Notes: a model not told the origin generated them from the sequence alone. A DNA stretch of 64,000 nucleotides from Terriglobia bacterium (GCA_965198225.1 CBDAOY010000009.1:960001-1024000), one strand, 5' to 3'; counted from the stretch's first letter, positions 1,281 to 50,248 are shown. Program-made: numbers and translations.

Positions 1281-1520
1281 AATATTATGGCTGTTGAACG
1301 TCGAGAAAAGTGGCTGCAGTTTCCCGGTCGGATCCGGGTGATCGAGCCGGGTGGTCATCACGCAACGCCGCGTGTGGGCGGAGCGGTTTGCAGTAGATCC
1401 GGAGTTGGAGACGCTCGGCACGGACGACTGGACCACCCCGGCTCCAAGGCTGGTGATTCCTTGAAGTCCTAATTCGCCGGATCTATACTCCCCGCAACTC
1501 CAGCGGCGAGGTATGTTTCG

Positions 1521-2219
1521 ATGAAAGCTCTGGTTCGAGTTTCATTCGTCCTGCTCCTGACGAGTACGCTCGTCTGGGCCGGAGATTTTTGGGAGGACAA
1601 ACAGTTTACCGAGTGGACCGAGAAAGACGTCGAAAAGATGATGACAAACTCACCGTGGGCCAAGCAAGTGAACGTAGCGCTGTCCATAGGAGGGCGGGGC
1701 GGGCGCGGTGGTGGGGCGCCCGGCCGAGTTGGGAGCCGTGGCGCTGGCGGAGATCGCCCCGGACGGGGTGGTGGCGGTGGCATGGCCCGCCGACCCGCCG
1801 TCAGGCTGACCATTTCATGGCGCAGCGCGCTACCCGTCAAACAGGCCCTGGTCAAGGCGCGAATGGGTGATTCCACCCAGATGCCGGCCGGGGCACAGCA
1901 GTACCTCGATCAACAGGACGAGTTCTACATCTTAGCCGTCGCCGGTTTTCCGGCTCAGATGGGTGGCCGGTTGGTGCGCAATCGTGAAGCTGCGCTCGCC
2001 GCAACGATCCTCAAGCGAAAGAGCGGTTCGATATCGCCCGAGAACGTTCGCGCCTTTGAACGGGGCGACGCCGTGGACCTGCTCTTCTTCTTCCCCAGAA
2101 GTGCCGACATCACTCTGGAAGACAAGGACGTGGAGTTGGTCGCGGAACTCGGCCCGATGGAGATCAAGAAAAAGTTCAAGCTCGAGGACATGGTTCTGAA
2201 CGGCAAGCTCGAACTTTGA
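1521..2219 (+). CDS. Secreted hypothetical protein with Gly/Arg-rich insert
   Basis: Signal peptide, W..K.F.EW...DV.KM..NSPWA N-terminal motif, FKL..M..NG.LEL C-terminus, plausible RBS. Confidence 0.75.
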   Translation: MKALVRVSFVLLLTSTLVWAGDFWEDKQFTEWTEKDVEKMMTNSPWAKQVNVALSIGGRGGRGGGAPGRVGSRGAGGDRPGRGGGGGMARRPAVRLTISWRSALPVKQALVKARMGDSTQMPAGAQQYLDQQDEFYILAVAGFPAQMGGRLVRNREAALAATILKRKSGSISPENVRAFERGDAVDLLFFFPRSADITLEDKDVELVAELGPMEIKKKFKLEDMVLNGKLEL

Positions 2220-3142: not shown

Positions 3143-3215
<73 letters not shown>

Positions 3216-13718: not shown

Positions 13719-14505
13719 GGGAGCAGTAGTTCTGGTCGTCAACAAGGAAAAGATACTTGTCGACCTGTTGGTGCGATCGTTCGAGGGGGATGGTCTGGCC
13801 ATGTTCGGGGCTGCGTCCATCGCCCAGGCGAAACATCTGTTGAAACAGCATCAGCCCGACCTCCTCATTATCGATCCCACTATCCCGGATGGATTCGAAT
13901 TCATGGGCGAGGTTCGGATCGGGTTAAAGCCGGTCGCTATCGTTGCCCTGGTCGAATCGGAAGACGTGCGGGAGCGGGTGGTCGCGGCCGGAGTGGAGCG
14001 CATGACGGACAAGAGCGCTGGACTCGACGCGCTCGTCGACGAGATCCGGTCTTCGTTCGACGCCGGCCTGTCGGTTCAAGCCAACGGCGACAGCGTTCGG
14101 GTGTTGCTCGCCGATGATGACGATGGAATGCGAACGACGCTGGCCGACTATCTGGGGATTCGAGGCTACTCGACGTTTCCGGCGAAGGATGGGCGGGAAG
14201 CCCTGGAACTGGTCCGGAAGGATGCGTCGATGAGGCTCGTGTTGTTGGACGTCAGTATGCCTCGGATGGGTGGTCTGGAGGTCCTACGCCAGATCATGCT
14301 CATGCCGGATCATCCCGACGTGATCATGATGACTGCGGTGGCCGACCGGGAAGTCGCAAAACAGGCTCTCAATGCGGGAGCGTTCGACTACGTCCTCAAG
14401 CCTTTCGACCTCGGGTCGATCGACTCTTCGATTATCGCTTGCCTCAGTTATTCGGACTATCACAAGCAGCCCTGGTGGAAGCGGTTGGTCCCACACTCCG
14501 CCTAG
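13711..14505 (+). CDS. Response regulator with two receiver domains (first degenerate)
   Basis: VLLADDD, LLDVSMPRMGG, MMTA, GAFDYVLKPFD; start overlaps the upstream stop. Confidence 0.85.
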   Translation: MAEGAVVLVVNKEKILVDLLVRSFEGDGLAMFGAASIAQAKHLLKQHQPDLLIIDPTIPDGFEFMGEVRIGLKPVAIVALVESEDVRERVVAAGVERMTDKSAGLDALVDEIRSSFDAGLSVQANGDSVRVLLADDDDGMRTTLADYLGIRGYSTFPAKDGREALELVRKDASMRLVLLDVSMPRMGGLEVLRQIMLMPDHPDVIMMTAVADREVAKQALNAGAFDYVLKPFDLGSIDSSIIACLSYSDYHKQPWWKRLVPHSA

Positions 14506-14777
14506 CAGCCCGTGGCAGAACTCTGCAGGGTCGCGCGCAGGGGTCTTCGGGTTGCAGGCGCGAAGAGAGGAGCGGAGCGATGATCATTCATCGTGACCGA
14601 CGAGGGACAAAGCCTGCGGCCCGAACCCCCCTGCGCCCTTCGGGTTACGGCGAAACGGGCCGTCTTCGTTGTCGCCGACTCCTCCCAATGAATGAGCATT
14701 ATTTCGTCCTCGCCTCCTAGAATCCGGCCCCGTTTGGCCGTAACGCGGCCCTGCAGAGTTCTGCCACGGGCTGCTAG
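14502..14777 (+). mobile_element. ~276-bp MITE-like non-autonomous element, copy 1
   Basis: Terminal inverted repeats CTAGCAGCCCGTGGCAGAACTCTGCAGGG / CCCTGCAGAGTTCTGCCACGGGCTGCTAG; near-identical copies at 47274 and 49814. Confidence 0.9.
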
Positions 14778-14849
14778 CAGTCCCGTTCCCCCACTACAAA
14801 CCGCTTATTTTTCAGCCGATTTGGTTCAATCCGCGCTAAATTATCTCGG

Positions 14850-21572: not shown

Positions 21573-22759
21573 TTCCGCTCCGGAGTGAATATGGCGACGG
21601 AACCGTCCGAAAACGTAACCTCGAACGAGATCCCGGTCATGTCGACGTCGGTGCCCGAGCCGGACTCGACGTCCTTGAAGTTCTGCAGCTTGATGCGCTT
21701 CGTTGCACCGGCCTGCGCGGACTGTCCAATGTTCTGGTCGAGCGCCAGGGTGAAGCCGGACTGGACCCGAACCGGGGATATCAGCCCGCTGTCGGAACCG
21801 GTCCCTTTGATCGTCTTGCTGGAGCTGAAGACGATGGTCTCGCCGCTCGCGGCTCTGTCCGAAGAGTCGTTGAAGACGGTCGAGTTGCCGACCTTGATTT
21901 TTTCGTAGAAAGCCGTCACATCGAATTCGGCCTTCAGGCTCGTGATGATGATGTCGTTGGCCGAGAAATTCTGGATGACGAACTCGACGTCGTTGTTCGA
22001 CCCACCCTTTGTGAAGCCGGTGTCGGCGACGTAGACCAGCGCGGGCTCGACTACCAGGCTGCGGTTGCCGAAAGGAACGTCGGTGAACGTGTACGCGCCG
22101 GACGCATTCGTGGTCGTGCTCGAGACTGCCGGGCTTCCGCCGGAAGGCTTGTTGATTTTGGCGGTCACGCCGGTCAGGGGATTCCCGCTGGCGTCCCGGA
22201 TGTATCCGACCACGGTCGCGAACAGGTCGGTCTCGTAGATTTCGACCGTGAGGTCGTCCCCTCCGCCCAAATCCGCATCCGGTCCGTAGCTGATCAGCCG
22301 GGCCCGGTACGTCTGTCCGGTCGATGAACTGACCCCGGTCTGGACCTCGTATACGATCGAGTTGCCCCATCCGTCGCGTGCGATGTCGGCGAATTGGTCC
22401 GTGGCGGGAACGCCGAAGTACGGACCGGCCCAGCCCGAACCCAACCTCAAGCTGGTGTCGAAGGTGAACAACGGCTGGGCGTTTCGAACCCAGAGCTCTT
22501 CCAGCGAGGTGGGCAGGGAGCCCATGGCCCCGATGAAGCCGAAATCGGTGCGGGATTCCTTCGTGACGATCCGTGGGTTTCCGATGATCGCGTGACGCAG
22601 TGCAGCAAGTCTGCGGCCGGTTTCGCGCTCGCGTTCGGCCTCCACCGGTTGGGAGAGTAGTGTAACCGTGCCGACAGCCACGAGCATCAGGATCCCCAGG
22701 CTGACGGAGACTTCCATCAGCGAGATCCCGCGATCACGTTGCGGACAGAGCGTTCCCAA
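21569..22759 (-). CDS. Large pilin-like protein, cassette 1 member D
   Basis: Probable TTG start after AGGAGG; RG|ISLMEV, DFGFIGAMG, GSGWAGPY, DGWGN, DMTGISFEVTFSDGS. Confidence 0.85.
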   Translation of the reverse strand: MGTLCPQRDRGISLMEVSVSLGILMLVAVGTVTLLSQPVEAERERETGRRLAALRHAIIGNPRIVTKESRTDFGFIGAMGSLPTSLEELWVRNAQPLFTFDTSLRLGSGWAGPYFGVPATDQFADIARDGWGNSIVYEVQTGVSSSTGQTYRARLISYGPDADLGGGDDLTVEIYETDLFATVVGYIRDASGNPLTGVTAKINKPSGGSPAVSSTTTNASGAYTFTDVPFGNRSLVVEPALVYVADTGFTKGGSNNDVEFVIQNFSANDIIITSLKAEFDVTAFYEKIKVGNSTVFNDSSDRAASGETIVFSSSKTIKGTGSDSGLISPVRVQSGFTLALDQNIGQSAQAGATKRIKLQNFKDVESGSGTDVDMTGISFEVTFSDGSVAIFTPERK

Positions 22760-22804
22760 TGCCTCCTCCTTGAGGTTGGTGCCCCGACGATCTTTCCCGC
22801 CGTC

Positions 22805-22915
22805 GGTACGACCAGTCACGCCGATCATTCGGCGTCATTAGGTTTAAGGATCGGCAACGGACGTCCGAAACTGCAACCAAAAGCGACGAGCCGGCAAACC
22901 AGACATCTGGTCAAG
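22805..22915 (-). promoter_or_regulatory. Conserved upstream leader, copy 1 (paralogue at ~24835-24950)
   Basis: Shared CGCTTTT..GGTTG.AGT...GATCC(T)TAAACC..ATGACGC(C/T)GAATGATCGGCGTGAC upstream of two different pilin genes. Confidence 0.55.
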
Positions 22916-22980
22916 ACGCTCGGGCGCGCTGGCTTCTCCGGACCCCGGTTTCTCCCTGGGAGCCGTTAGAGGAAATGCAT

Positions 22981-23255
22981 CTACTTGATTCGATAGATGA
23001 TGTCGTCGCCAGCCGGAGCGACAGCGGCTGTCTTGGAAATGTTGAAGCTTGTGTCGACCGTTGAGTCGGGTCCCGCCGAGAGGACGAAGCACGCATCGGC
23101 GCTCCCGCGCTTTGCGTTGATGATATTGACGAGATAACGGTTGCCCCATGGATCCGATCCGGGGTCCATGTATGGGCCGTTCCACTTGAACGGTCTGGCG
23201 GATGCCGTGGTCGTCGGATAGGAGGGAGCGTTTGTCAGAAGCTGCGGATAAGCGG
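22981..23255 (-). pseudogene. C-terminal half of a GspG-type pilin, cut by intron insertion
   Basis: KWNGPY...DPWGNRYLVN...LSAGPD..DT...GDDIIYRIK; the upstream frame runs into intron sequence. Confidence 0.85.
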
Positions 23256-23259
23256 TATA

Positions 23260-24577
23260 TCGCGCCAAGCAAAGCTTGGGAAAGGGGAATTTGATGTGAG
23301 TCGATGAAACCTTTCGAAAGGAATCCAACTGGTGAAAATCCAGTCCGGCTAAAGCCGTAGCGGGCAGGCCGGTAGCGAGTCTTGCCTGTCGCCGGGTGAT
23401 CGGCGGGAGAGAAGCGTAGACAGCGAGGAAGTGGCGCAGCGAGGCTAGCTGCTGTGCTAGCGGGTGCAAGTCCCGCCGGCGCAATTTCCAGTATGGCGCC
23501 GTAGTTATATCCGGCAGTTATTGGGGTGACCCAATGGCTGGAAGCCCGGAAGTAAAAGCTCTAGACGGGGGAGAGGCGACACCGTATCTGTCCGGATCAG
23601 CACAGGGAGCAAGCAACCCGGAGGGCCGTAGCGAGAGCGAACGAACAAGACGCCGAAATGGCTGTCCCCGCATGAAGCTGATTTGCGGGAACGTTGGAGA
23701 TGCCAAGTGGTTCCCACTTTTTCATGATGGCCAGTGTCGGTATGGAAGAACTGGAGTGAGCACATACCGAATCTCCCGGCGTAGGCTGAAGGCGGCAATC
23801 CTGGAGAGTACAGTAGCGAAAGCCCGGAAGGTCTGGTGACCAGGCAGGAGGGTCCTTGAATGCCAAAGACTATCGCTATAACCGGCACTGCCGGGAAATG
23901 GGATGGAGGCCACCAGACTGGCGGATGGGGTCGCCAAGCGAGGATGGTTGGGACAACATAACCCAACTGGAGCGAGGACCCCAGGGCCCAGGTGAGGTCG
24001 ACCGCGGTCAATGGTCCCACACTCTGAAGTGGAGAATCCAGTTGACCGGGACGGCCCCTAAGGGCGGAGCAAACTGATTCGGCGAACGGTGTATTGTCGG
24101 GACCGGACTTTAGCCGCGAGCGGAGCCAGGAAGGCTTCGTGCCGAACTTACAGGTGCCTGGCGCTTGAAGCCGTACTGGGGAAAACCCGACGTACGGAAT
24201 TTCAGGGAGGGCGGCTGGAAACGTGAGCCATGGCAGAATTAGGAACCCGCTCCACGTATCGAAAGAGTGGAAGTCGGAAACTCTCATGCCTACAGTTGCG
24301 CGCGCCAGTGCTCTACCCGACGGCCGCGAGGATTCAGCTCCGAAATTTATTACGTTGCGGATGCCGAGGCTTTTATATCGGTCGAAGGCCGCATCCGGAC
24401 AGCCGTCATGCGAGGTTGTCGGGAGCCGCCGGAGTCTCTAGCCCGGGGCACGCTTCCACAGGGATTCTCCAGGAACTTGGGAAAGCCTCGCAATCTCCTC
24501 TCGAAGAGGTAGTCGGCGGTCGAGGGCAACCAGAGACTGCGGGCGACGGGTTGAGAGGAATCTTATGAGCCCATAGT
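23260..24577 (+). mobile_element. Outer group II intron, 5' domains only, split by an inner intron
   Basis: Domain I hallmarks GGTGAAAATCC and GAAGCGTAGACAGCGAG resume after the inner intron as GGCCGCG..ATTCAGCTCCGAAAT, GCCGAGG...GAAGGC, CCAGGAACTTGGGA, ATGAGCCCATAGT; no domain V or RT ORF follows. Confidence 0.7.
23434..24321 (+). mobile_element. Inner, apparently complete ORF-less group II intron (~890 nt)
   Basis: 5' GCGGGTGCAAGTCCCGC loop, domain V GAAGCCGTACTGGGGAAAACCCGACGTACGGAATTTC at ~24167-24203, long domain VI ending CTCTACCCGAC; no RT ORF. 5' boundary uncertain by about 3 nt. Confidence 0.85.
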
Positions 24578-24628
24578 GTGTGCTGAGCAGCGCACCGCTC
24601 AGGAGGGTTGAAGTCCCTCCGGTGATCG
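24578..24628 (+). mobile_element. 5' stub of a third group II intron
   Basis: Canonical GTGTG start followed by GGAGGGTTGAAGTCCCTCC, exactly where the outer intron breaks off. Confidence 0.55.
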
Positions 24629-24636
24629 GATGAGGG

Positions 24637-24801
24637 TCACCGTATCGCTCCAGGTCCGCCTTGGCTGTTTCCGGCTTTCGCCTTCATCAACGACGATGCG
24701 AGCGGGACGAGAAAACCCGCCATGATGCTGACGATGAACAGTGAGGCGACCACTTCCGGCAGAGTGAAGCCGCGGCTTCGGCAACGACCGGAGAGACTCA
24801 T
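24637..24801 (-). pseudogene. N-terminal fragment of a GspG-type pilin
   Basis: RG|FTLPEVVASLFIVSIMAGFLVP leader, then degenerate (ETAKADLE in another frame); probable partner of 22981-23255. Confidence 0.75.
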
Positions 24802-24834
24802 GCGCGTTCTGCGTGGACGATCATTCACCGTCGT

Positions 24835-24950
24835 CGGTCTCCAAGCCGGTCACGCCGATCATTCAGCGTCATGGGTTTAGGATCTGAGAAGGGCGTCGGG
24901 GACTTCAACCTGAAAAGCGTCGAACCGACAAAAACACACATCGACCTAAG
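24835..24950 (-). promoter_or_regulatory. Conserved upstream leader, copy 2
   Basis: Paralogous to 22805-22915. Confidence 0.55.
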
Positions 24951-25023
24951 AATATGGCCTGTTTTTGTTTAGGGGAGAGTCTGACTCTGGGGCGGGGAGG
25001 GGGTTCAACAGCCCTGGGAGAGC

Positions 25024-25629
25024 TTATTTCACTCGCCCGACGATATCGTCGCCGCCGATCGTCACCGCGCCGGCGCCGGATCCGATGTTCTGGTCGAACG
25101 TGGTTTCGATCTGCCCGTTAGGTCCGGCCGAGATGACCATTCCGGCCTTCTGGACCCCGAAGCGGAGGTTCTCGGCGCTGACCAGGTAGGCGTTGCCCCA
25201 GGGATCGTCGCCGAGCTCCTGAACGTAGGGGCCGCGCCACGCAAACCGGCCGGCCGTGCCGTATCCGGGGACGTTGCGGCCGAGAATGTCTTCAAGATCT
25301 CCTCGCTCGTTGAGGGCCGGCAACCATTCGCTGTCGGTAGCCGAGGGAAGGGTTCCCGGGCCGAGCAGGATCTCGTAGTAATCGGAAGATGTGGTGATGC
25401 CGACGCCCGACTTGAAGATCGGCCACTTGCCTGTCGCCTTGTTGAAGTTCCGGATGGCCTGGCCGATGTTCACGACCTCCAGCTCGGCCCGTGTGACGCG
25501 GGCTTCTTCCACCAGTCGGCTCACCATTGGCGTGAGAATCGTGACGAGTATCACCAGGACCGCCAGAACCACAACCACTTCCAGGAGAGTGAACCCGAAT
25601 TCTTGCCTGCCGACGAATCTCATGATCAT
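25024..25629 (-). CDS. GspG-type pilin, last gene of cassette 2
   Basis: G|FTLLEVVVVL, WRGPY, DPWGNAY, SAGPNG.IET, GGDDIVGRVK. Confidence 0.9.
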   Translation of the reverse strand: MIMRFVGRQEFGFTLLEVVVVLAVLVILVTILTPMVSRLVEEARVTRAELEVVNIGQAIRNFNKATGKWPIFKSGVGITTSSDYYEILLGPGTLPSATDSEWLPALNERGDLEDILGRNVPGYGTAGRFAWRGPYVQELGDDPWGNAYLVSAENLRFGVQKAGMVISAGPNGQIETTFDQNIGSGAGAVTIGGDDIVGRVK

Positions 25630-26792
25630 GGCACCGAAAACGTGTTGACCGAGCCGTCGCTGAAGCCGATCGTAAACGTGACGCCGCTGACCGAGACGCC
25701 GCTCGCGGATCCCGTCGCTGCATCTTTGAAGTCTCGAATCTCGACGACGACGGACTTGCCGACTCCTCGAATCTCGACGTCCGGCGCTGCCGTGACCTCC
25801 TGTTCCACGCGGATCGGGATGACCTGCGTCGGCTTGCCCGTTCCGGCGACCGCCACCGCGGAGAAATTAATCGTCTCGCCGGTGCCCGGCCGGACACTGC
25901 TGTTGTCGGTGACGTAGTCGAAGACCTGCGTGTTTCCGATCTTGACTTCCTCGTAGTAGGACGCCGGCGAAGACGTGTATGTCGCCGTCATCGACGTGAC
26001 GTTGACCGCGTCGGACCCGAAGTTGGCCACCGTAAACTTGAGTCGGGTGCCCTGCAGCTTGGCGGTGCCGTTCTCATAGGTCAGCCGCGGATCGATGGCC
26101 AGGCTGCGAAACCCGAACGAGACATCGGTGAACGTGAAGTCGCCGCTGGCGTCGGTGACCGCGACGCGCTGGTCCACTGCGCCGTCAACCGGTACGTTGA
26201 GGGAGACGGAAGCAAAGGGAACAGTCTGATTGTTCCGCTTCAACGTCCCGTTGACGGTCGAGAAGATTTCTCCCTTGAGAAGGTCGATGGACAGGTCGTC
26301 GTCGGTTCCGCTCGTCCCGTCGGCGCCGAGGCTCGTGATTCGGGCTGCGACAAGGGCGTTATCCGAGGCACGGTTGAACTCGGTTGACGTGTACACAAGC
26401 GGATTTCCGAAGGGATCCAGGTCCAGCGTCAGGAGATCCTCGACGAACGTGTCGGGCGCGTAGGGGCCCACCCACCCGGCACCGACCAGGTCGGTCGTGT
26501 CGAAGACGTAGCCCGCCTGAGCCCCCTTGATCCACAGTTTGTCGAGCGTGACTGGTACGCCTCCCATTGTGCCGATGTAACCGAAATCGGCCCGGCCGCC
26601 TTCAATCACCAGGTTCGGATTACCGGCCATGGCTGTCTTGAGCGCTTCCAGATCCTCGCGAGCCTGCAGCGTTCTCGAAGCATTCGCAACCTGGTTCGCC
26701 ACCGGGACCGAAGCGACGATTAACGCGGTGGTCATCGCCATGAGGACGACGGCCCACAGGATTCCCATTCCCCTGTTTCGCTCCTGATTCAT
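25626..26792 (-). CDS. Large pilin-like protein, cassette 2 member A (no Glu5)
   Basis: RG|MGILWAVVLM; colinear paralogue of 17986-19161 (e.g. GKPTQ.(V/I)PIRVEQE.T.APDV). Confidence 0.85.
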   Translation of the reverse strand: MNQERNRGMGILWAVVLMAMTTALIVASVPVANQVANASRTLQAREDLEALKTAMAGNPNLVIEGGRADFGYIGTMGGVPVTLDKLWIKGAQAGYVFDTTDLVGAGWVGPYAPDTFVEDLLTLDLDPFGNPLVYTSTEFNRASDNALVAARITSLGADGTSGTDDDLSIDLLKGEIFSTVNGTLKRNNQTVPFASVSLNVPVDGAVDQRVAVTDASGDFTFTDVSFGFRSLAIDPRLTYENGTAKLQGTRLKFTVANFGSDAVNVTSMTATYTSSPASYYEEVKIGNTQVFDYVTDNSSVRPGTGETINFSAVAVAGTGKPTQVIPIRVEQEVTAAPDVEIRGVGKSVVVEIRDFKDAATGSASGVSVSGVTFTIGFSDGSVNTFSVP

Positions 26793-47273: not shown

Positions 47274-47550
47274 TTAGCAGCCCGTGGCAGAACTCTGCAG
47301 GGCCGCGTTACGGCCAAACGGGGCCGGATTCTAGGAGGCGAGGACGAAACAATGCTCATTTATTGGGAGGAGTCGGCGACAACGAAGACGGCCCCGTTTC
47401 GCCGTAACCCGACGGGCGCAGGGGGGGTCGGGCCGCAGGCTTTGTCGCTCGTCGGTCACGATGAATGATCATCGCTCCGCTCCTCTCTTCGCGCCTGCAA
47501 CCCGAAGACCCCTGCGCGCGACCCTGCAGAGTTCTGCCACGGGCTGCTAG
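47274..47550 (-). mobile_element. MITE-like element, copy 2 (opposite orientation)
   Basis: Reverse complement of 14502-14777 with few differences. Confidence 0.9.
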
Positions 47551-47591: not shown

Positions 47592-49817
47592 ATGAGAGTC
47601 CCGCCTGCTACGGTCCTGCTGGCAATCGTTCTGGTTCTGATTTCTCCGCTCGAGCTCCGAGCCCAGGAAGGAACCGTCCCGGTCGCCCGTGCGACTTTCG
47701 TCGAAGAGCCGCCCACCATCGACGGATTCGTCAATGACGCCGTCTGGGAACTGGCCGATCCAATCTCGGACTTCATCCAGTCTGAACCGGTCGAAGGAAC
47801 GCCGGCCTCGGAAAGGACCGTGGTCAAGATCGTCTACAACGACCGCGCGGTCTTCGTCGGCGTGATCTGCTACGATGACCAGCCCGACGAGATTCTGGTG
47901 ACCGACAGCCGCCGCGATTCCGGGATGAACGACACCGATTCGTTCCAAATAATCTTCGACACCTACCACGACCGCCAGAACGGCTTCGTCTTCGGCACGA
48001 ACCCGGCCGGGATCGAGTACGACGGACAGGTCAGCAACGAAGGCGGCGGAGGCGGCCGAGGCGGCGGAGGCCGCCGGCAGTCCGTCGGTACCGGCTCCGG
48101 CTTCAACAGGAACTGGGATGCGAGCTGGACGGTGCGTACCCACGTGAACGAAATCGGCTGGATGGCCGAGTTCGAGATCCCTTTGAGGAGTCTCCGCTAC
48201 GGCGACAAACCCCAGACCTGGGGGCTGAACTTTCAGCGCAATATCCGGCGCAAGCGCGAGCAGGTTTACTGGGCGCCGATCGAGCGCATCTACAATCTCT
48301 ATCGGCTCTCAGCCGCCGGGGAACTCCGTGGGCTTGAACTCGAGGCGCCTCGAAATTTCAAGGTGACGCCCTACGTGGTGGCTACGGCGGCCCGGAACTA
48401 CACGAACCCCGCAGAGTCGGAAACCCGGTTCGACGGCGATGGTGGGATCGACGCGAAATTCGGCGTGACGCCGAGTCTGAATCTGGACCTGACCTATAAC
48501 ACGGATTTTGCGCAGGTCGAAGTCGATGAGCAGCAGATAAACCTGACCCGGTTCAATATCCGTTTTCCAGAGAAACGCCCGTTTTTCCTCGAGAACGCCG
48601 GTCTGTTTGCTGTGGGCCGGGGCGGCGTCGACCTGTTCTTCAGCCGGAGGATCGGGATCAACGACGGTGCCGTGACACCCATCGTCGCCGGCGCGCGGCT
48701 GAGCGGCAAGGTCGGGACGTTCAACGTCGGGCTGCTCAACATGCAGACTGAAAAGGTCGACGGCGTCACGCCCGCGAACAACTTCAGCGTCGCCCGCGTC
48801 AGCCGGGAACTTCCGAACCGTTCGAGCCTCGGCGGGATCGTCGTGGGCAGGGACGCCACAGGTTCCGGCGCCGGATCCGGTGACTGGAACCGCACGTGGG
48901 GGTTCGACGGCAGGCTTGGCGTCGGCGCTTACACGAATTTCAGGGGCTTCATCGCAAGAACGGAAACGCCGGGCCGCGTGGGTCGCGAATCTGCCTACAA
49001 CGTCCGCGGCGAGTATTCGCGTCGTGGAGGACGCACGTGGTTCGAATTCACCCAGGTGGGCGGAGACTTCAACCCCGAGGTGGGATTCCTTACCCGCAGA
49101 GATTTCCGCTCCATCGAAACCGGGATCTTTCAGAACTGGCGGTTCGCCAGCCTCCCTGTCTTTCGCGAACTGCGCCCGCACGTAACTTATCGGAGCTGGT
49201 GGGACTTTGACGGTTTCAAGGAAACCTCAACTCTTCACATGGACACCCATTTCGATTTCGAAAGCGGGGACTATATCAGCCCGGCCTTCGAAATCGAGAC
49301 CGAGGGCCTGAAAGTTCCTTTCAAGATTTTCGAGACGGACGAGGGCGAGGAAATCATAATCCCGCCCGGTTCTTACACCAACGGCGGCATCAACTGGAAC
49401 ATGCACACCGACCCGAGCCGCCCGCTTTCAATAAACGGCAATTTGAGGATTGGCGGGTTCCTCACCGGGAACCAGCGTGAAGTCACAGCGACTGTGAGTG
49501 CGCGGAGAGGGTCGAATTTCAACACTTCCGTGAGCTGGAGGCGCAGCGACATCAATCTGCCTGAAGGGGAGTTTGTGACGAACCTCGTCGGGACTCGGTT
49601 CAACTACAGTTTCACGCCGCTGATCAATTTTCAGTCGCTCATCCAGTACAACGATGCCGCGGATAATTGGGCCGGCAACTTCCGGTTTGGCTGGTTGAAT
49701 ACTGCGGGTACGGGTCTCTTCGTCGTTTTCAACAATATACGGTCGCTCGAAGGTCTCGGACCGATCAACCGCAGCTTCATCGTGAAGTACACCCGCCAGT
49801 TCGACGTCCTGCGCTAG
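47592..49817 (+). CDS. CBM9-like / DUF5916 outer-membrane protein, paralogue 1
   Basis: Signal peptide, PTIDG...D.VW, FDTYHD..NGF.FGTNP.G, W.AEFEIP..SLRY, YNTDFAQVEVD....NLTRF...FPEKRPFFLEN, FFSRRIG. Confidence 0.85.
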   Translation: MRVPPATVLLAIVLVLISPLELRAQEGTVPVARATFVEEPPTIDGFVNDAVWELADPISDFIQSEPVEGTPASERTVVKIVYNDRAVFVGVICYDDQPDEILVTDSRRDSGMNDTDSFQIIFDTYHDRQNGFVFGTNPAGIEYDGQVSNEGGGGGRGGGGRRQSVGTGSGFNRNWDASWTVRTHVNEIGWMAEFEIPLRSLRYGDKPQTWGLNFQRNIRRKREQVYWAPIERIYNLYRLSAAGELRGLELEAPRNFKVTPYVVATAARNYTNPAESETRFDGDGGIDAKFGVTPSLNLDLTYNTDFAQVEVDEQQINLTRFNIRFPEKRPFFLENAGLFAVGRGGVDLFFSRRIGINDGAVTPIVAGARLSGKVGTFNVGLLNMQTEKVDGVTPANNFSVARVSRELPNRSSLGGIVVGRDATGSGAGSGDWNRTWGFDGRLGVGAYTNFRGFIARTETPGRVGRESAYNVRGEYSRRGGRTWFEFTQVGGDFNPEVGFLTRRDFRSIETGIFQNWRFASLPVFRELRPHVTYRSWWDFDGFKETSTLHMDTHFDFESGDYISPAFEIETEGLKVPFKIFETDEGEEIIIPPGSYTNGGINWNMHTDPSRPLSINGNLRIGGFLTGNQREVTATVSARRGSNFNTSVSWRRSDINLPEGEFVTNLVGTRFNYSFTPLINFQSLIQYNDAADNWAGNFRFGWLNTAGTGLFVVFNNIRSLEGLGPINRSFIVKYTRQFDVLR

Positions 49818-50090
49818 CAGCCCGTGGCAGAACTCTGCAGGGTCGCGCGCAGGGGTCTTCGGGTTGCAGGCGCGAAGAGAGGAGCGGAGCGATGATCATT
49901 CATCGTGACCGACGAGCGACAAAGCCTGCGGGCCGAACCCCCCTGCGCCCTTCGGGTTACGGCGAAACGGGGCCGTCTTCGTTGTCGGCGACTCCTCCCA
50001 ATGAATGAGCATTGTCTCGTCCTCACCTCCTAGAATCCGGCACCGTTTGGCCGTAACGCGGCCCTGCAGAGTTCTGCCACGGGCTGCTAG
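49814..50090 (+). mobile_element. MITE-like element, copy 3
   Basis: Same TIRs and body as copy 1; its left CTAG contains the stop codon of the upstream gene. Confidence 0.9.
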
Positions 50091-50248
50091 CAGCTGCTAA
50101 ACCTGCATGACCGCTCGGCATTGTCGTATCGCATAAAGTTGATACAATGGCGCCCTTGTGTATCGCGGGCATACGAATCCGCGTACATATAAACAGGTTG
50201 CGCCCTTCCGGGGATGGTTCAATTGATCTACAGGGGATTGGAATCATA

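Follow-up and report, generated by a model that had tools for sequence, protein, structure and literature searches.

A probable fossil twintron array of group II introns between two pilin-like gene remnants in a Terriglobia bacterium

Introduction

Do introns lie within an intron at this locus, and if so, is the arrangement a working twintron, a product of rearrangement, or the debris of mobile elements that insert into one another? The window, a stretch of 64,000 nucleotides from a Terriglobia bacterium genome, contains a segment that the initial annotation took for a nest of three group II introns. The analysis below bears out three intron elements, the third identified by a 47-nt alignment and by its position. 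The elements are described from the outside in, followed by the locus, the explanations that may account for it and the systems with which it can be compared.

The outer intron

The outer intron, O, is present in two segments and is preceded by a short flank:

23260-23433, + strand: O, 5' segment, first half of domain 1; opens UCGCGCC, not GUGYG
24322-24575, + strand: remainder of O, with the second half of the domain 1 model and sequence as far as the ..CCCATA site
23246-23259, + strand: flank GGATAAGCGGTATA ahead of O, candidate intron-binding-site remnant of O's target

Evidence that these segments belong together includes both model matches and uninterrupted relatives. Rfam scans over 22000-26000, at gathering and at E ≤ 10, return RF02005 (group-II-D1D4-6) only. 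The 5' half of O matches at 23335-23474 (60.8 bits, E ~1e-14), with a true alignment that runs from model position 1 to ~100 and stops near 23433. The second half matches at 24278-24444 (62.7 bits, E ~1e-14), where the true alignment places model positions ~100-225 at 24322-24444. Because the two matches are complementary, they describe a single domain 1 split by the 888 nt at 23434-24321. O copies spanning this site without interruption number seven out of seven, six in genomes G016 and G017 and one in G008, and the four covered by an RF02005 scan match the whole model in one piece at 129.6-136.9 bits. The flanks as naturally joined in these copies (130-137 bits) and the split match in the window place O among domain 1 sequences.

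The left junction, GACAGCGAGGAAGTG|, ends at 23433 and the right, |GGCCGCGAGG, starts at 24322; O reads ..GAGGAAGUG on the 5' side and GGCCGCG.. on the 3' side. The empty site in the G008, G016 and G017 copies has the consensus ...GA(G/A)GAA(G/C)GTG|GGCCGCGAGG.., with ..GACAGCAAGAACGTG|GGCCGCGAGGG.. in G008 and ..GACAGCGAGGAAGTG|GGC(C/T)GCGAGGG.. in G016 and G017. Window O is 92.5% identical to the uninterrupted G016 and G017 copies across 23244-23444 and 87-89% identical to uninterrupted O copies across 24322-24577, and taking out 23434-24321 gives back the uninterrupted O sequence, base-exact. The split of the outer intron's domain I at GACAGCGAGGAAGTG|GGCCGCGAGG, as first annotated, is thus exact, and the insert, put at ~890 nt, measures 888 nt. 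Both O copies of the window's genome that reach this site, one in the window and one at C6:838140-838377, are occupied.

At 23260, O starts with TCGCGCCAAGCAAAGCTTGG. Every O copy seen opens with UCGCGCC (UUGCGCC in G008) rather than GUGYG; judged from these copies, the departure is a family trait and not decay of the window copy, its first base being approximate. The flanks ahead of O copies elsewhere, GGATAAGCGGAATA (G016 and G017), GGATAAGTAAAACA (G017) and GTGTAAGAAGTTTAT (G008), are the same as or similar to the window's GGATAAGCGGTATA, which is probably a remnant of the IBS of O's target.

O sequence stops at 24575-24577, and the 3' part with domains 3-6 is gone; RF00029 finds no domain 5 or 6 of O in 22000-26000 at E ≤ 10. 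O copies in G017 carry the start of an RVT_1 ORF ~130 nt past the CATA site, one of them an ORF matching RVT_1 positions 1-116 at 40.7 bits. Window O has no domain 4 reverse transcriptase by six-frame RVT_1/GIIM search or by Pfam on ORFs, and across the whole genome, six-frame searches for RVT_1 and GIIM give no match inside window positions 23000-25000, in keeping with the initial report of no RT ORF. A 260-aa ORF on the - strand (23505-24287) and five ORFs on the + strand have no Pfam match and are treated as chance ORFs in G+C-rich RNA-coding DNA.

The inner intron

The inserted DNA, I, has the following parts:

23434-24321, + strand: inner intron I, ORF-less, 888 nt, GCGCAG...CCCGAC; edge movable by one G
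23458-23636, + strand: domain 1 core of I, RF02003 (group-II-D1D4-4)
23715-23721, + strand: candidate EBS1 of I, CACUUUU, in a loop complementary to the 5' exon
24168-24199, + strand: candidate domain 5 of I; hairpin with an AGC triad, a 2-nt bulge and a 5-nt loop, mismatched at the helix base
24200-24321, + strand: domain 6 of I, long and elaborated, ~120 nt; candidate branch A at 24315

Scanned alone, I matches RF02003 at 70.3 bits (cut-off 49, E 3e-15), which identifies its domain 1; the match is missing from whole-region scans, probably through a clan-overlap filter that favours the overlapping RF02005. Group-II-D1D4 models are therefore matched by both introns, RF02005 by the halves of O and RF02003 by I. 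The G008 homologue of I scores 64.6 bits with RF02003, and more distant relatives score 51.5-76.7 bits. The domain 5-like hairpin has an AGC triad and six pairs on one side of a 2-nt bulge and four pairs, capped by a 5-nt loop, on the other, and an RNAalifold set of five sequences (window I and four relatives from G013, G015, G022 and G032) shows compensatory changes in four of its ten pairs. RF00029 does not match domain 5/6 of I, either at E ≤ 10 over the region or at E ≤ 1 with I alone. The two pairs at the base of the domain 5 helix are mismatches, and for this reason I may itself be inactive.

Domain 6 is kept at 65-78% in G013, G022 and G023, and two of its inner helices show compensatory changes; the 3' end, ..CUCUACCCGAC, has a candidate branch A, placed by eye, 7 nt from the end. 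The folding z of I is -5.17 on the + strand (0 of 20 shuffles as good) as against -1.11 on the - strand (3 of 20). At its termini, the 3' ..GAC fits AY, and the inserted DNA opens GCGCAG (ACGCAG in G008) without a GU of its own. Among the elements of the nest, only I is full length.

Several copies define the boundaries of I and its target sites. The site in O domain 1 is GGAAGUG|GG both in the window and at C6:838140-838377, a fragment of 238 nt, 96% identical, that holds a second copy of the O/I left junction. A G015 copy of I, 97% identical and 5'-truncated, stops at the same ..CCCGAC| and is followed by other O sequence, GGGAACCGCAGGGC; its truncation would fit abortive reverse transcription. 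A G008 copy, 84% identical, starts 21 nt past O's ..CCCATA site (..GATGAAGGTG|ACGCAGCGAGG..), at a second site that reads ..AATGAAGGTG|GGGAACC.. when empty in uninterrupted O. From the G008 5' junction and the G015 3' junction it follows that I occupies two sites in O, both GAAG(G)TG|GG. At both known target sites the exon supplies GUG, and since the inserted DNA lacks GU, I may be a complete intron only in such a target.

The candidate EBS1 pairs with the exon GGAAGUG (23427-23433) through five Watson-Crick and two G-U pairs. In the G008 copy, the loop CAUCUUU stands opposite the exon GAAGGUG, with one A-U to G-C swap (by eye, n=2). The complementarity of loop and exon fits EBS1-IBS1 recognition, the apparent covariation being drawn from two sequences. 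Precise boundaries, empty sites in seven of seven copies, a recurring 3' end and a pairing EBS1 candidate mark I as a discrete mobile unit, and since both its flanks join into continuous O, I in O is a twintron. In the D1D4-6 model, the domain 1 site occupied in the window maps to a variable, single-stranded linker rather than to a strongly conserved motif.

Diverged relatives of I in G013, G022 and G023, which represent two genera, also adjoin or lie within intron sequence. At L079 (G023:C2, ~1490-2215, minus strand), an ORF-less intron lies inside the long domain 6 of an I-like intron; it matches RF01999 at 100.9 bits and RF00029 at 45 bits, and by comparison with an empty G013 copy the inserted DNA opens TTGCGCC, with no 5' G. 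At L077 (G013:C39, 3-1641), the stop of a group II RT/maturase ORF (RVT_1 and GIIM) is followed after ~40-70 nt by an I-like intron without an ORF (RF02003, 51.5 bits), which is therefore nested in domain 4 of another intron.

The third element and the T family

Two further pieces follow O, both related to an intron family, T, found elsewhere in the genome:

24576-24639, + strand: third element, T-like 5' stub GUGUGUGC...; a start at 24578 is also possible
24640-24685, - strand: inverted T-like piece (T positions 138-185), directly after the stub

At 24567-24582 the window reads GAGCCCATAGT and then GTGTG. Uninterrupted O copies run on as ..CCCATAGTACCAATGAAGG.. at this position, unlike the window, which past CCCATA reads GTGTGTGCTGAGCAGC..., that is, GTGTGTGCTGAGC; this divergence indicates that the window leaves O at 24576-24578. 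Two bases (GT) are common to both sides, which makes the boundary of the stub ambiguous. By analogy with the T family, the stub would start at 24576 (ATA|GTGTGTGC). The second cut of the outer intron by a GTGTG-starting stub, proposed in the initial annotation, is thus present as a junction, but its likely start lies 2 nt before the cut as first placed.

The stub is ~50-70 nt long. Its first part, 24576-24622, aligns to T positions 1-48 (47 nt) with a score of 20, as against 8 for the reverse complement and a mean of 9.9 in 500 shuffles, the best of which reached 16. No Rfam intron family is assigned to it, 24550-24760 alone giving only noise (E 6.6-8.7), and G008, G013, G015, G016 and G017 contain no closer relative. 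The third element is tentatively recognised by GUGUG, the 47-nt alignment to T and the ..ATA| position; its remaining intron parts are missing, and only a 5' junction is present. The inverted piece scores 31 (shuffle maximum 18), and 17 of the genome's T copies match it at 83-88% identity in the opposite orientation. As it follows the stub directly, the stub ends in an inversion breakpoint. The initial annotation did not include this inverted fragment.

T encodes a reverse transcriptase, RVT_1 scoring 104 bits in six copies with 458-aa frames. Relatives of the nest elements elsewhere now include the C6 fragment, seven empty O copies and RVT_1-bearing copies of both T and O. The window's genome has 20 T 5' ends, all but one of them (C5:3834) preceded by ..NNTA|, and 17 of the 20 have a verified host intron, in which they occupy one and the same relative position:

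RF02005-type hosts: 8 T 5' ends
RF01999-type hosts: 3 T 5' ends
RF02001-type hosts: 2 T 5' ends
Other T copies as hosts: 4 T 5' ends, flank ..GGGGAATA
No verified host: 3 T 5' ends

The stub in window O occupies the ..ATA| position at which T interrupts other introns. In O this site lies past the domain 1 model and ~130 nt before the ORF ATG of the G017 copy; MFE folds of families A (described below) and O are uninformative for assigning it to a domain. By eye, the ..RUA| target in several hosts would make up the 3' arm of a small hairpin of 3-4 bp, such as UAUG-AGCC-CAUA in O (window 24560-24575) and UCAG-ACUGG-CUGA in family B.

A T variant in G024, 96% identical, has seven 5' ends, and none of these seven loci has a host intron by Rfam on 1.5-kb upstream flanks. 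Restriction of T to introns was considered and rejected, as the seven G024 loci and two loci in the window's genome have no Rfam host. The seven G024 ends indicate that T can live outside introns and is not an obligate intron parasite.

Across three genera (g1, g4 and g8), T is 100% identical over its first 200 nt and has the same host-intron flanks, at loci in G013:C24 and G023:C2 (L101, L102 and L105) compared with the window's genome. T is absent from the three other genomes of the window's genus. The identity across genera suggests either very recent horizontal spread or cross-contamination of assemblies.

The locus and its flanking gene remnants

The intron block lies between the remnants of two different genes:

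22984-23244, - strand: pseudopilin gene Y remnant (T2SS protein G-like), C-terminal 87 codons
24686-24828, - strand: pilin-like gene X remnant, N-terminal ~45 codons, N-methylation motif

Y aligns at 79% identity with residues 127-213 of a 213-aa gene in the sister genome G016 (Pfam T2SSG, 20.9 bits), with homology to G016 ending at 23244, and X is 87% identical to residues 8-52 of a 466-aa G016 gene (Pfam N_methyl, 27.4 bits). In G016, 12.5 kb with five or more long ORFs separates the two genes. The G016 interval contains no Rfam intron, and the window's genome has no syntenic counterpart of it. The position of the block, antisense to X and Y and between two truncated genes, points to a deletion or rearrangement scar. 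We infer that this locus has lost the 12.5 kb; an insertion in G016 could also explain the difference, but the truncated genes here argue against it.

Other features of the window are unconnected with the nest. An 80-nt motif lies just upstream of pilin-like genes at 24816-24897 and 22786-22865 (a pair 79% identical), and a 280-nt repeat at 14503-14778, 47276-47549 and 49815-50091 has more than 20 copies in the genome, which are 72-83% identical to a G016 segment; both repeats are unrelated to introns. A tRNA gene is present at 3143-3215 on the - strand (RF00005, 73.6 bits).

How the nest may have formed

The region is very probably a fossil twintron array, a decayed nest at a deletion scar. 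Its present structure is observed, and the following course of events would account for it. An RT-type group II intron of family O would have occupied the locus. The ORF-less I may then have reverse-spliced into O domain 1 at GGAAGUG|GG, guided by its EBS1, and been copied by a reverse transcriptase supplied in trans. A T-like intron would next have entered O's ..CAUA| site, downstream of domain 1 and ahead of domain 4 with its ORF. Finally, rearrangement and deletion would have taken away O's 3' part and cut the T-like intron down to ~50-70 nt, leaving an inverted T-like scrap behind and eliminating ~12.5 kb of neighbouring genes. The debris now separates the 5' end of one pilin-like gene from the 3' end of another. 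We infer the order of events and the trans-acting reverse transcriptase. Retrohoming, that is, EBS-IBS-guided reverse splicing and then reverse transcription, appears to be the best reading of the insertions. As judged from its sequence, the nest is read as a non-functional relic that would be unable to splice as a unit and has no known function.

A separate question is why introns accumulate inside introns. One tentative answer is that, in this bacterial family, the ORF-less I-type introns and partly the RT-encoding T-type introns are specialised parasites of other group II introns that use ribozyme sequence as a standing homing site. Introns from at least three Rfam domain 1 classes, as well as T itself, offer T its ..RUA| site in one and the same position, a pattern that, on this tentative reading, would give self-perpetuating, multi-level nests. 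The alternative is passive: introns insert widely at short motifs and survive only inside other selfish elements, where they find a safe haven. T's shared target is indeed short (..RUA|), the seven G024 loci have no Rfam-detectable host and three of the 20 T ends here have no verified host. As a general account the passive explanation is nevertheless doubtful, given that T insertions recur at a homologous position in at least eight sequence-distinct host intron types, T itself included, and that both sites of I in O have GAAG(G)UG|GG in common and fit the EBS1 candidate of I. Part of the nesting may still reflect survival in harmless places rather than targeting. The initial annotation had proposed that two introns target conserved ribozyme motifs of another intron and had called this hyperparasitism. 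This interpretation is supported, with qualifications: signs of site-specific insertion are found for both introns, but the I site is a variable linker; insertion at intron sites is recurrent, but T is not an obligate parasite, as its seven hostless G024 loci indicate.

The junctions might instead have arisen by recombination between intron copies or by mis-assembly of repeats, since the genome contains dozens of related intron copies and the block ends at 23245 and 24686, like the inversion at 24639/24640, resemble scars of illegitimate recombination. This is very improbable as a source of the nest. Base-exact restoration of O on excision, the same left junction at a second locus, an I end at the same base in another genome and a stub exactly at the T-family site all argue against it, as do contigs from sequencing runs of three studies, which bridge the nest junctions with at least 31 letters on each side and few or no differences. 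The junction 23433/23434 is bridged by X3 record 10 and X5 record 19, 24321/24322 by X3 record 13, and 24575/6, 24639/40 and 24685/6 by X1 record 8; one bridging run may be the assembly's own source. The nest is not an assembly artefact. Joints in X1 that skip 23434-24321 (two contigs with a side of 26 and one with a side of 29) were given no weight, because the side is below the reliability mark of 30 and they may stem from other organisms.

It is hardly credible that the array is a live twintron, spliced sequentially as in Trichodesmium, whose splicing would restore or regulate the pseudopilin gene or give rise to a functional RNA. The inner intron is full length, has recognisable domains 1, 5 and 6 and folds well on the + strand, but the introns are antisense to both remnants, which come from two different genes, O lacks domains 3-6, the third element is a stub followed by inverted scrap, and no reverse transcriptase or maturase is encoded locally.

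Other nests in the genome

Multi-level nests occur on contigs C4, C5 and C6, with examples at C5:759450-761900, C5:810800-818800, C6:838100-843600 and C4:147200-153800. In these nests, domain 5 of an RT intron (RVT_1 ~115 bits) is followed within 17 nt by an RF02005-type 5' end, GTTGCGCC.., and the RF02005-type intron carries T, which in places carries another T. Family A comprises three near-identical, complete ORF-less introns of ~870 nt, GTGCGCCAAGCGAAGC...CTACCGCGAT, that match RF02005 at 112-118 bits (C6:296064-296930, C5:569600-570490 and C8:78630-79500); one of the three reaches the RF00029 threshold.

This genome and its relatives thus hold many further nests, with occupied and empty sites side by side. 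Such varied cases make intron target choice, the folding of inner before outer introns and the decay or deletion of nests testable. The example in the window is itself an inert scar, and it illustrates that intron debris can mark a gene loss of ~12 kb. The window nest is of moderate interest, mainly as an entry to an intron-rich lineage.

Comparison with known systems

Section 17 of PMC4424553, which summarises a 2003 study by Dai and Zimmerly, describes nested arrays in Methanosarcina acetivorans that arose by repeated homing of introns into introns. To go by the title of the 2003 study, homing there is into the ORFs of related introns (domain 4), whereas here the sites are in the ribozyme (the domain 1 linker) and between domain 1 and the ORF; moreover, the host here is a bacterium rather than an archaeon, and the window's nest is truncated.

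Another likeness is TeI3-in-TeI4 of Thermosynechococcus elongatus, for which the relevant part of PMC2882425 describes near-identical inner copies, diverged outer copies and mobilisation of the inner intron by a reverse transcriptase in trans. Both cases have an ORF-less inner intron at a fixed site of an RT-encoding outer intron (PMC2882425). In the same account, however, TeI3 lies in domain 4, between two start codons, and leaves the ribozyme intact, whereas here domain 1 is split and the nest is known from sequence alone.

T.e.I7/I8 of Trichodesmium erythraeum is likewise a bacterial group II intron nested in another (PMC4649490). As presented in the pertinent part of that paper, it is complete, has the sense orientation within a conserved gene and undergoes sequential splicing in vivo, in contrast to the window nest, which is truncated, antisense and located between gene fragments. 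In Euglena chloroplast twintrons, as here, the inner intron interrupts the ribozyme, and the outer intron folds only after its removal (PMC4424553 section 17). Unlike the present case, the Euglena twintrons, as outlined in PMC4424553, are organellar and degenerate (group II/III), are spliced and serve gene expression.

In PMC4424553 and PMC4649490, bacterial twintrons are described as rare and multi-level nesting as peculiar to one archaeon. The literature searched, with many subscription papers and supplements outside its scope, yielded no description of nests from this organism group. The initial annotation had held that bacterial twintrons are known, and introns homing into introns are indeed on record in the parts of PMC4424553 and PMC2882425 that treat them. 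As such homing has been described in Methanosarcina and Thermosynechococcus, and a spliced bacterial twintron in Trichodesmium, the kind of phenomenon seen here is already known. What differs here is the use of ribozyme sites rather than domain 4, the range of T hosts, which belong to several structural classes and include T itself, the non-GUGYG termini of O and I, and the long domain 6 of I.
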